From: an uncultured Hormoscilla sp.
GTDB taxonomy: Bacteria > Cyanobacteriota > Cyanobacteriia > Cyanobacteriales > Desertifilaceae
DNA: 64,000 nucleotides
Assembly: GCA_963921275.4 (NCBI GenBank)
Contig: OZ001293.3
Span: forward strand, 1,024,001-1,088,000
Reading direction: 5' to 3'
Shown: positions 4,033 to 6,281 of the stretch, piece after piece
How positions within the stretch are numbered: position 1 is the stretch's first letter
Layout: each line of letters opens with the position of its first letter
Notes under the pieces: model-generated
Database searches by the model: none
Seen by the model: only the letters and a program-made list of their open reading frames with translations
Told to the model about the DNA's origin: nothing
Made by a program: the position numbers and the translations under genes

Positions 4033-6281
4033 TATCGCTCTTCTGTCACTCTAGGCAGAAGAAAAGTTTAAATCTCCATGACATTCTGTACTTGGAAGCA
4101 TGCCAGGAAAGATATTCATGAAGTTTATTAATTTAGTCAAGGGGGTAATTAACTGTGGAATAGGAAAGACTTTATACCAATTTTTAATCTGATTCAAGCA
4201 TAGCCAAGGAGCAAGAATTAATCGACAGTTATTAATAATATTTTTCCAACCCATGCCGGGATCCCAATCCTGGTGTTCCGATAATATATTTACCGCTCCT
4301 GATTTCTGTTTTAGGTCTGCGTTGTCGATTTTATTTTCCAATTGATGACTATGTAGAGAGCTCATCAAGTAGGCACTACACACCAGTTCCCACCATTTTT
4401 CTATATCTGCATAATTCGTGAATCTAAAATCGGCCCATCCTAACTCATTTTTACTTTGTTTCAATCCATACTCTACCCAATTCCTCTGTCCATATAAATT
4501 GCCAACATTTTTATAAATTAGCCTTTTCTTGTTGATCATCATCTGGCAAATTCTCTTTGTCAGTTGTAATTTGCCAATACCTTTGTTTTTTAACATTTTT
4601 ACTCTGGGGTCGTCTAATAATTTCTCTAATGGATCTTTGGGTTGTTTTTCCATTACTAAATATTCTGTCAAACTCTTTCCATTCCTTGAATCTAGCTTTT
4701 TCATGGTCTGATATCCACAGACCATGATTACTCCTTGTTGAAACTAAATAATCCTGCTCCATTTCCGACATGGATGGGGTCGAGCCGGGAATCGCTTCCC
4801 GACCCTCCCTTGAGGAACCGGACTTGCGATTTTCACCGCATCCGGCTACTGGGTACTAGGCCCTTTTCATAGGTAGACTTAATAGGAATTACTTCCGTTA
4901 GCCCTTGCCGCCTGTCTTTTCTTCCCTTTCCTGGTTTAGCGAGTGGTTGTTCTGATAACCGTTAGTATCACCATTTTCAAGTCAGTTTTATCAGTTATCC
5001 ATACCTTATCCTCCACTTGCGTTTCGGATTAGTTCCGTGGCTTTTTAGGATTACTCATTCCAGCAGCTTCCTAGTATCACCGACCACGTCAGCGCTGGCT
5101 ACCCAGCATCATCTACATTACTGTAGATGTTATCCCAGGAATTACCCCGGGCATTCGCTTCTTGGGCCATCCCTCCCCCCGTGGCTTGCGCTTAACATCT
5201 AACTTGTCCTGATGGACAGCACACGAGAGGTTACTTCGTTCCCTAACAACATTTCGCGATACCTTTAGGTCCACACTATACCCCGGGAGCTATTTGAGTA
5301 CTATATTAGCCAGAGTCTAAAACTAATACTAGCTACCATTTCCTTTTTAGGCCAGCGCATATAGCCTTATTTCGCTGGTTCCTTATAACGAGGCTTGCAC
5401 ATGTTTGCCTGCTCTAACCTTGGATATCTTTCCTAGCGGCGTCACCGGCTTAGGCTGCCAGTTATCCTACATTTGAGTCCTCGCTTAGCACCACGATGAT
5501 GTCGCTTCGTAGCACCGAGGACCGGTGTCACCCCCGTACCTGGGGGGAGGGGAATTTAACCCCCATGCGGTCAGAGTTCCCGGCTAATGAAACCGGGCTA
5601 GCGTTCCGTGTTTGACCACGTTAGGCTAGAACGAATCGCACAGAATCAATAAAGTTACTTTCACCATACAAAGAATCAGCTATTACTAATTCAAATTGAA
5701 AACCTAATTTTTTGAGTTCGGCAAGCAGCAATCTGAGTTTTTGCTTTATAAATATCTCCATCTTTTAACCTTGATTCCGGCTTAAAAACTTCAAAAATTA
5801 AAGGGATTGTCATGTCTCTAACAACCGTTACTGCTACTAGGCCATTTTACCCAAATTACCGATCCATTGTCTTTGAACATAATCAGTAGAGGCTCCTTTT
5901 TTGCGAGCTCCTGTATCATCAATTAGCAAAAAGACTTTTTCACCTTGTAATGCTGCTAAAATCAACTCTAACCGTTTCCTTCTGAAGAGAAAAACTTCCC
6001 AGGGAGAGTTCGAGATAAAATGATGTAATCCTTGAGCATTTGATAATCCAACTAAGTCGGCGAGCGCCGGCAATGTTTTTCTTTTTATATCGCTAATCAT
6101 CCCAATCTGAATATTTTAAAAAGCCTCGAAGCTTCTAACTTCTGGAAATTGATTTTGATAAACCTGACAATAATCATCTATAAATTTGACCGTCGGGTTA
6201 GCTTTTCGCAACCATAGACTACTCCTTGGTTTGAGCGTTTGCTTTTGACCATTGTACCACAAGAGTGACAGAAGAGCGCTA
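4033..6281 (-). mobile_element. IS701-family IS (degraded transposase) interrupted by a group II intron
   Basis: IDDTG..KKG..TDYVQRQWIGNLGK and KNELGWADF motifs; ~20-bp terminal IRs around CGCTCTTCTGTCACTCT at 4033-4052 and 6262-6281. Confidence 0.9.
4772..5641 (-). mobile_element. ORF-less group II intron, copy A (870 bp)
   Basis: 5' GTGCG; DV AGCCGGATGCGGTGAAAATCGCAAGTCCGGTT; removal restores the IS701 frame FIDS|MSEM; near-identical to 35808-36678. Confidence 0.93.

Follow-up and report, generated by a model that had tools for sequence, protein, structure and literature searches.

A massively amplified, protein-less group II intron of a Hormoscilla cyanobacterium ends in C-pyrimidine as a mobile element

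We report that a protein-less group II intron in the genome of an uncultured Hormoscilla sp. ends, as a mobile element, in ...AUCC, i.e. in C-pyrimidine instead of the textbook A-pyrimidine. The intron was analysed in a stretch of 64,000 nucleotides (nt) from this cyanobacterium (assembly GCA_963921275.4, contig OZ001293.3, positions 1,024,001 to 1,088,000 of the forward strand), which we refer to as the window and to which coordinates refer unless given as C1 loci. The best explanation, taken jointly, is that of a mobile, protein-less IIB2/chloroplast-like intron that spreads by reverse splicing, is helped in trans and ends in AUCC, and we put the probability of this reading at about 0.8. In other words, the AUCC intron is a genus-restricted, massively amplified penultimate-C variant within a class of IIB introns that is already known from cyanobacteria.

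Two copies of the intron lie in the window. The positions that the preliminary description gave for the first of them (copy 1, 4772..5641) are correct, with the strand being minus: the 5' GUGCG begins at 5641 and the 3' ...CUCGACCCCAUCC stops at 4772. Read on this strand from 5641 to 4772, copy 1 starts GUGCGAUUCG and terminates ...GGCUCGACCCCAUCC. With its 870 nt as the query (566 high-scoring segment pairs), 139 full-length copies were recovered genome-wide at an identity of at least 97%, and copies reach at least 99% identity. The terminal bases are CCCCATCC in 138 of these copies and ATTC in one, while the 5' motif of the ATCC-ending copies is GTGCG in 137/138 and GTGTG in one. The list of open reading frames (ORFs) contains no reverse-transcriptase ORF inside copy 1, and the element also encodes no transposase, in line with the original proposal of an ORF-less group II intron family. 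Several features of a group II ribozyme are present, namely the 5' GUGYG, a domain V with AGC triad followed by domain VI, a bulged A and complementarity of the exon-binding sites EBS1 and EBS2 to the target; the AY 3' end is absent, with AUCC in its place here and CU or CC in other families. AY is a consensus with published exceptions (PMC4238363). The Rfam model RF00029, which covers domains V and VI (DV-DVI), matches both window copies with 44.4 bits against a cut-off of 40 (4774-4850 and 35810-35886), and in both the alignment ends at AU and leaves the final CC out, i.e. it is 2 nt short.

The evidence for a boundary after CC comes from several kinds of junction. We screened the 139 copies genome-wide, excluded five tandem copies and tested 133 non-tandem copies for uninterrupted paralogous sites. 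Such sites exist for 54/133 copies, and in 54/54 the boundary falls exactly after ...GACCCCAUCC (ATCC). The preliminary description had proposed a C-pyrimidine end and had named CC inside empty sites as the observation that would speak against it; we looked for this pattern and found CC in 0/54 empty sites, and the proposed end stands for the mobile unit. When flanks of 80 nt are compared, 1306 of 1314 pairs adjoin with a gap of 0, a count that takes in a few trivial tandem self-hits. Five self-insertions have the flanks aagtct|intron|acctatg, which are the intron's own sequence at 767|768, a position that is uninterrupted in about 130 other copies. Head-to-tail tandem copies always join as ...CAUCC|GUGCG. 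When the intron is removed in silico at different 3' positions, an ORF of at least 150 amino acids spans the junction in 70/139 copies for an end at CC, as opposed to 35 for an end at AU (-2) and 27 at -1. Moreover, at one AUCC copy (L001 1216-2086, with an ambiguity of 1 nt), precisely 871 nt are absent from contigs of relatives, which at the GACU intron of glutamate synthase resume exactly at the first base past GACU (L001 14512). Because empty sites, self-insertions, tandem joins, the frame test and the intron-less sites of relatives agree, we conclude that the CC belongs to the mobile unit. In retrohoming, the DNA that is inserted has the sequence of the excised RNA, from which we infer a 3' splice site after C870; exon ligation after CC would be the corresponding reaction in vivo.

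The diverged copies ending in AGCU (window 12263) and GACU (window 34032) end in the same register as AUCC, as had been claimed, and for GACU the offset is 0 in 31/33 copies with empty sites, with one copy at +1 and one at -5. The two host frames originally cited for the window copies are less informative. The frame FIDS|MSEM at copy 1 belongs to a DDE transposase disrupted into three frames or more, in which the intron is in the sense orientation; both of the two genomic copies of this transposase are occupied, and neither offers an empty site. The second of these transposase copies contains, at C1:3454542-3455515, a hybrid that looks recombinant and in which a full intron precedes the terminal 103 nt of a further intron copy. 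At copy 2, the frame ETEII|RHVK supports the DNA boundary, for which there is an exact and intact empty counterpart at C1:2409527 (gap 0), but not splicing, because the gene is on the plus strand and the intron is antisense to it. Self-insertion at 767|768 generates twintrons, found at C1:1325884-1327625 and at the loci 4741852, 5180205, 6029574 and 6410256. Tandem arrays comprise three copies at C1:5447656-5450268 and two at 824934-826675, and are expected from re-insertion at an existing exon/intron junction.

The 139 copies represent 104 distinct non-tandem sites, which share the consensus AACCUUA at -15..-9 and GRGUCU at -6..-1. Downstream of the intron, +1 is A in 81/104 distinct sites and there is no bias from +2 on. 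The intron carries AAGGUU and AGACUC at the expected places of domain I, complementary to this consensus, and the EBS1 loop differs in a 91%-identical relative from the genus-mate G004. Insertion is precise and without target duplication, and no terminal inverted repeats were seen. Judged by these complementarities, the pattern at the 104 sites appears to be the mark of a IIB intron that reverse-splices under the guidance of EBS2, EBS1 and EBS3. In the AGCC and UACC families of the genus-mates G004 and G002 (L017-L020, L026-L028), +1 is C in 7/7 copies seen, while A is preferred in the AUCC and GACU families, which points to a possible change of EBS3 in the AGCC/UACC families; the AUCC and AGCC introns differ in a variable stretch at intron positions 255-261.

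We suggest the following model. Excised intron RNA would reverse-splice into DNA sites that pair with EBS2, EBS1 and EBS3, the first exon base A being the one that would pair with EBS3, and related protein-coding introns of the same genome would provide the reverse transcriptase in trans. Coding relatives with UAAU tails are present in the genome as two open frames of 609 amino acids (C1:1147413 and C1:6625993), and the frames of about 600 amino acids in these relatives contain YADD, a maturase region and HNH; judging from these domains, which recur in the protein gene split by copy 2 in the window, the UAAU-tailed relatives probably supply the reverse transcriptase. The excised RNA, and hence the 3' splice site, would end ...GACCCCAUCC, such that a four-base single-stranded tail would follow domain VI. 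Within this structure, the last base C870 would pair with G470 of J2/3 (gamma-gamma'), and A862 would be the branch adenosine, eight bases from the splice site.

In our model, domain VI consists of GGG/CCC pairs at the base, a bulged GA, an upper helix of 10 bp and a GNRA loop. In 25 sequences from several genera, 95.7% of the cells of this model are paired, compared to 35-65% in slid controls, and 8 of the 13 pairs have changes on both sides, with the basal GGG/CCC being invariant. The sole bulged adenosine of domain VI is A862, which is located 8 bases before the end, i.e. at position -9, where the preliminary description had already placed the likely branch A. In every clade member, four bases come after ...CUCGACCCC (...GACCCC) before the copies diverge; by eye, the tail does not covary with the base preceding the GGG of domain VI. 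Clade members ending in UAAU or UAAC share the register, the 49-nt layout from domain V to the end and the -9 adenosine. The UAAU boundary is confirmed by prfC, for which the G004 orthologue is uninterrupted and of equal length and the exon join ...GCAGTT|TGCTTATC matches codon for codon, and five copies in G182 diverge immediately past UAAU. We rejected G485 as a source of boundary evidence because all 14 of its UAAU copies occupy one repeated target. Other intron lineages of the same genome, subjected to the same analysis, end in AAU, GAC, AAC or UAC, 6-7 bases past the bulged A and, thus, the method recovers canonical ends. Spacers of 6 nt and 7 nt between branch point and splice site have been called typical (PMC9294222). 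By this comparison, the 8-nt spacer appears to be a trait of the whole class, one base above the typical 6-7 nt. Because the canonical UAAU/UAAC relatives share the spacing, the spacing is not the oddity. Similarly, the proposal that the splice site is shifted 2 nt past an expected AU is not supported, since these relatives have the same four-base tail, register and -9 adenosine. Rather, the AU within AUCC is coincidental, and the true deviation is the penultimate C for A.

In this genome, the tails of the clade are AUCC, GACU, GACC, UAAU, GGCU, AGCU, AACC and UACU, while four genomes of the same genus have AGCC, UACC, GCCC, UGAC, UAAC and others. The 49-nt layout with NNAY tails, nearly all of which are UAAU or UAAC, is present in 25/201 genomes and 15/96 genera sampled from the order. 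By contrast, NNCY tails in this layout are present in 4/201 genomes of the order, with 266 copies in the genome analysed here, 34 in a genus-mate and one each in two others, and in 2/401 genomes of a phylum-wide sample. Thus, on the genomes sampled, CY tails appear almost confined to this genus. The genome that contains 266 NNCY copies has 20 NNAY copies, and a tree of 20 family representatives requires no fewer than 3 changes to account for the penultimate C. As to the overall intron load, the genome contains 139 near-identical AUCC copies together with 96 full-length diverged ORF-less copies, and there are 302 strict DV-DVI matches of the clade of the AUCC intron. A first look with RF00029 gave 867 candidates genome-wide, of which 150 were scored, and 148 of the 150 matches listed are above the cut-off. 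For comparison, the maximum given in a 2022 survey is 101 group II introns per genome, in Arthrospira platensis (PMC8919778).

The identity of the last base is reflected in J2/3. Directly 3' of domain II, the clade has AG-N-GAU, in which N is G in the C-ending families AUCC, AGCC, GACC, UACC and AACC and A in the U-ending families GACU, UAAU, GGCU, AGCU and UACU. Regular-expression counts of the match between J2/3 and the last base gave 144 ATCC, 102/103 GACT, 24 TAAT and 6/7 GACC copies. At the level of families, the rule fits 17/17 representatives with a readable J2/3 (3/20 being unreadable), with only 1-2 independent changes, and further C-ending families of G002-G004 all combine G with C. 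This pattern fits Watson-Crick gamma pairing and is consistent, if not statistically strong, with C870/U870 as the true last nucleotide. AUCC is also the exact complement of the J2/3 sequence GGAU (intron positions 470-473), and the penultimate C of every CY tail could pair with the invariant G471. It is, therefore, conceivable that the change from A to C at the penultimate position was adaptive, in that a clamp of 2-4 bp between tail and J2/3 would favour reverse splicing over ligation and would have driven the burst of 266 versus 20 copies. We consider this improbable. Given NNCC, AU at the first two positions has a 1-in-16 chance, which makes the lead weak, and the J2/3 bases build the catalytic triplex with which a clamp helix would compete.

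Four other explanations for these observations have to be weighed. If the intron ended at the canonical AU, the CC would be the conserved first two exon bases of the target. In its favour, the Rfam alignment extends only up to AU, and on this reading 138/139 copies have CC next to the intron. But CC is missing not only from all 54 uninterrupted paralogous sites but also from the intron's own self-insertion site; the tandems read AUCC|GUGCG and not AU|GUGCG, and frames are restored at offset 0 and not at -2. We give this explanation next to no credence. The same is true for the idea that the copies were spread by recombination or a transposase, in which case their ends would be uninformative on splice sites. 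While the hybrid locus C1:3454542 indicates that recombination may occur, neither process accounts for precise insertion without target duplication at 104 different sites, all of which match EBS1/EBS2, by an element without a transposase gene. A third explanation is that two 3' splice sites are used, one after AU and one after CC, and that only the CC-ended RNA is seen in the form of DNA copies. A precedent is B.a.I2 of Bacillus anthracis, in which two 3' sites lie at a distance of 4 nt and either one has gamma-gamma' and EBS3-IBS3 (IBS, intron-binding site) interactions to itself (PMC4424553, PMC9294222), and AU is indeed present 2 nt upstream of the end. However, an end at U868 would need an A as the gamma partner and J2/3 has G470, the base after AU is C and not the preferred A, splicing at AU would frameshift every sense host, and the tails GACC, AGCC and GCCC have no internal AY. 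Use of both sites is, therefore, very unlikely.

The last of the four explanations deserves more attention, although we still consider it unlikely. It holds that CY copies, like RmInt1 of Sinorhizobium meliloti according to a published proposal, retrotranspose efficiently but splice poorly or inaccurately, i.e. are selfish elements that disrupt genes and in which ligation is unselected and a penultimate C is tolerated or even favoured. The identity of at least 99% points to a recent burst, CY copies outnumber AY copies by 266 to 20, and 16 of the 40 ATCC copies in single-copy ORFs are antisense and cannot be spliced out. In RmInt1, fidelity is reported to be lowered by the run of C at the 3' splice site, with less than 1% of exons ligated in vivo (PMC4238363). 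On the other hand, sense copies are found in single-copy, conserved genes, with a GACU copy in ferredoxin-type glutamate synthase (C1:5580677) and AUCC copies in queG (C1:2638282) and ribD (C1:37709), and removal restores the frames of these genes exactly, and the other CY families in single-copy ORFs comprise 15 sense and 5 antisense copies.

Several observations weigh against the reading of a splicing IIB2/chloroplast-like intron that ends in AUCC. The 24 sense and 16 antisense AUCC copies in single-copy ORFs amount to a weak bias in which selection for splicing is not evident, and we rejected orientation bias as a proxy for splicing on account of these unconvincing numbers; many copies are plain gene disruptions. 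Metatranscriptome contigs (X1, X2) were likewise rejected as proof of splicing because they derive from 90-95% relatives with intron-less alleles; their intron-less joints recur in run X7, the kind of which is not on record. No RNA-seq of the source organism was found among the sequencing runs searched. The gamma covariation amounts to 1-2 independent changes on the tree (two changes per trait), at which a sign test is powerless. The EBS3 nucleotide was not located in the intron, the stretch at 255-261 being a candidate. As to class, the Rfam models for domains I-IV give a sub-threshold match only (group-II-D1D4-2, 22 bits against a cut-off of 36), and the putative assignment to the cyanobacterial IIB2/chloroplast-like introns is based on the 5' motif and the protein domains RVT_N, RVT_1, GIIM and HNH.

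With respect to known systems, the 5' end matches the IIB2/CL2 consensus GUGCGAUUC, which has been used as a mark of IIB2 (PMC4649490). The endonuclease domain HNH in its coding members sets the clade apart from class D. A CC 3' end is on record for RmInt1 and further introns of class D (PMC4238363); the CC end is thus rare but not unprecedented, with the precedent in another class. As described there, RmInt1 and class D IIB3 introns resemble the AUCC intron in the CC end and the IIB type and also, with respect to the putative interactions of the AUCC intron, in a J2/3 G that pairs with the last C and in EBS3-IBS3, and RmInt1 is also a multi-copy retroelement that is often found in mobile DNA. 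By contrast, the RmInt1 protein is described as lacking an endonuclease domain, while the coding relatives here have HNH, and a run of four C crosses the RmInt1 splice site, while +1 is A here. TeI3 of Thermosynechococcus elongatus is similarly a cyanobacterial, ORF-less IIB intron that has proliferated within one genome into families split by EBS/IBS and mobilised by the protein of related coding introns (PMC2882425), but copy numbers are far higher here than those reported for TeI3. Tr.e.I7 of Trichodesmium, the host intron of a IIB2 twintron, shares the 5' end GUGCGAUUC, IIB2 features and the occurrence of introns within introns but, unlike the AUCC intron, is described as protein-coding and single-copy (PMC4649490). 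Gamma-gamma' and EBS3-IBS3 determine where the 3' splice site of group II introns lies (PMC9294222), and in B.a.I2 and the class B introns with a domain VII, e.g. B.c.I4, this site is likewise not fixed by the distance to domain VI (PMC9294222, PMC4424553). However, those introns are reported to have alternative sites or extensions of 53-56 nt, whereas here there is one site and an 8-nt spacer. In the literature searched, we found no paper that joins Hormoscilla with group II introns or with introns, and no statement on the 3' ends of CL2 introns, although ends of this kind may already be catalogued in the boundary tables that the Calgary database keeps for each class.

[quoted passage not shown] Against this background, a whole radiation of cyanobacterial introns with C at this position has become the most successful retroelements of their genomes, and represents a natural experiment on how tightly splicing and reverse splicing are bound by the 3' splice-site rule. 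For the field as a whole the effect is modest, because the CC end of RmInt1 is already documented and the whole class has this spacing. In practical terms, Rfam-based pipelines would mis-place the splice sites, e.g. at window 4774 (AUCC, 2 nt short) and at 34031 (GACU read as GAC, 1 nt short), and automatic intron removal of this kind would frameshift hosts such as glutamate synthase. The features of the window on which this analysis is based are listed in Table 1.

Table 1. Coordinates of the intron copies, their functional elements and their hosts in the window (DV-DVI, domains V and VI; aa, amino acids)
Feature	Position	Strand	Remarks and basis
ORF-less group II intron, copy 1	4772..5641	minus	870 nt (majority form 871 nt); RF00029 match; longest sense ORF 53 aa
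Copy 2 of the same intron	35808..36678	minus	871 nt; antisense within reverse-transcriptase gene
5' splice-site motif GUGCG (intron start GUGCGAUUCG)	5637..5641	minus	Sequence
EBS2 region CCAAGGUUAG	5414..5423	minus	Putative complementarity to IBS2 consensus, from site logo
EBS1 loop UUUUAGACUCUGG	5310..5322	minus	AGACUC complementary to IBS1 GAGUCU
J2/3 segment G470-G471-A472-U473	5169..5172	minus	Last intron base has G470 as its proposed gamma partner
Domain V, AGC triad, GAAA loop	4816..4847	minus	RF00029 and RF04356 alignments
Domain VI, bulged A862 at window 4780	4776..4809	minus	Structure counted on 25 sequences; A862 is the putative branch point
Single-stranded tail AUCC, four bases	4772..4775	minus	Putative 3' splice site after C870; empty sites, frame test
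First 3' exon base A, IBS3 position	4771	minus	+1 site consensus
5' exon target of copy 1, IBS2 AACUUUA and IBS1 GAUUCU	5642..5656	minus	Flank sequence
5' exon: DDE transposase N-terminal pieces	5642..6100	minus	Pfam DDE_5, E 1.9e-14 on 5837-6100
3' exon: DDE transposase remnant, two frames	4051..4771	minus	ORFs; Pfam DDE_Tnp_1, E 8e-4, below cut-off
AGCU-tailed ORF-less relative	12263..13154	minus	892 nt
GACU-tailed ORF-less relative	33198..34032	plus	835 nt, ~72% identical; RF00029 alignment ends 1 nt early, at GAC
Intron-encoded protein gene split by copy 2	34395..37062	plus	34395-35807 RVT_N, RVT_1, GIIM; 36679-37059 HNH
DV-DVI of protein-coding host intron, other lineage	36992..37068	plus	Canonical end ...CUUAGUUUAAU, 7-nt spacer

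Copy 2 is part of a nested intron complex, in which it splits the reverse-transcriptase gene of a protein-coding intron of another lineage. Among the matches listed, the domain VI of this host lineage, found at about 25/32 places, diverges right past AAU (AAC in one case). The AUCC intron is present at the same antisense site of the reverse-transcriptase gene in at least 9 other loci, e.g. C1:1148426, 3090871 and 3651401, which reflects either repeated targeting of this site or copying of the composite. A repeat-rich ORF of 2938 amino acids (37150-45966, plus strand) begins 82 nt past the 3' end of the nested complex, and an ORF of 162 amino acids upstream of the complex (32471-32959, plus strand) resembles an internal part of this ORF. 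The giant gene or a paralogue of it may, therefore, be the host that is interrupted by the nested complex. Elsewhere in the window, the minus strand at 27123-27176 matches NsiR1, a family of nitrogen-stress small RNAs, with 50.1 bits against a cut-off of 39.

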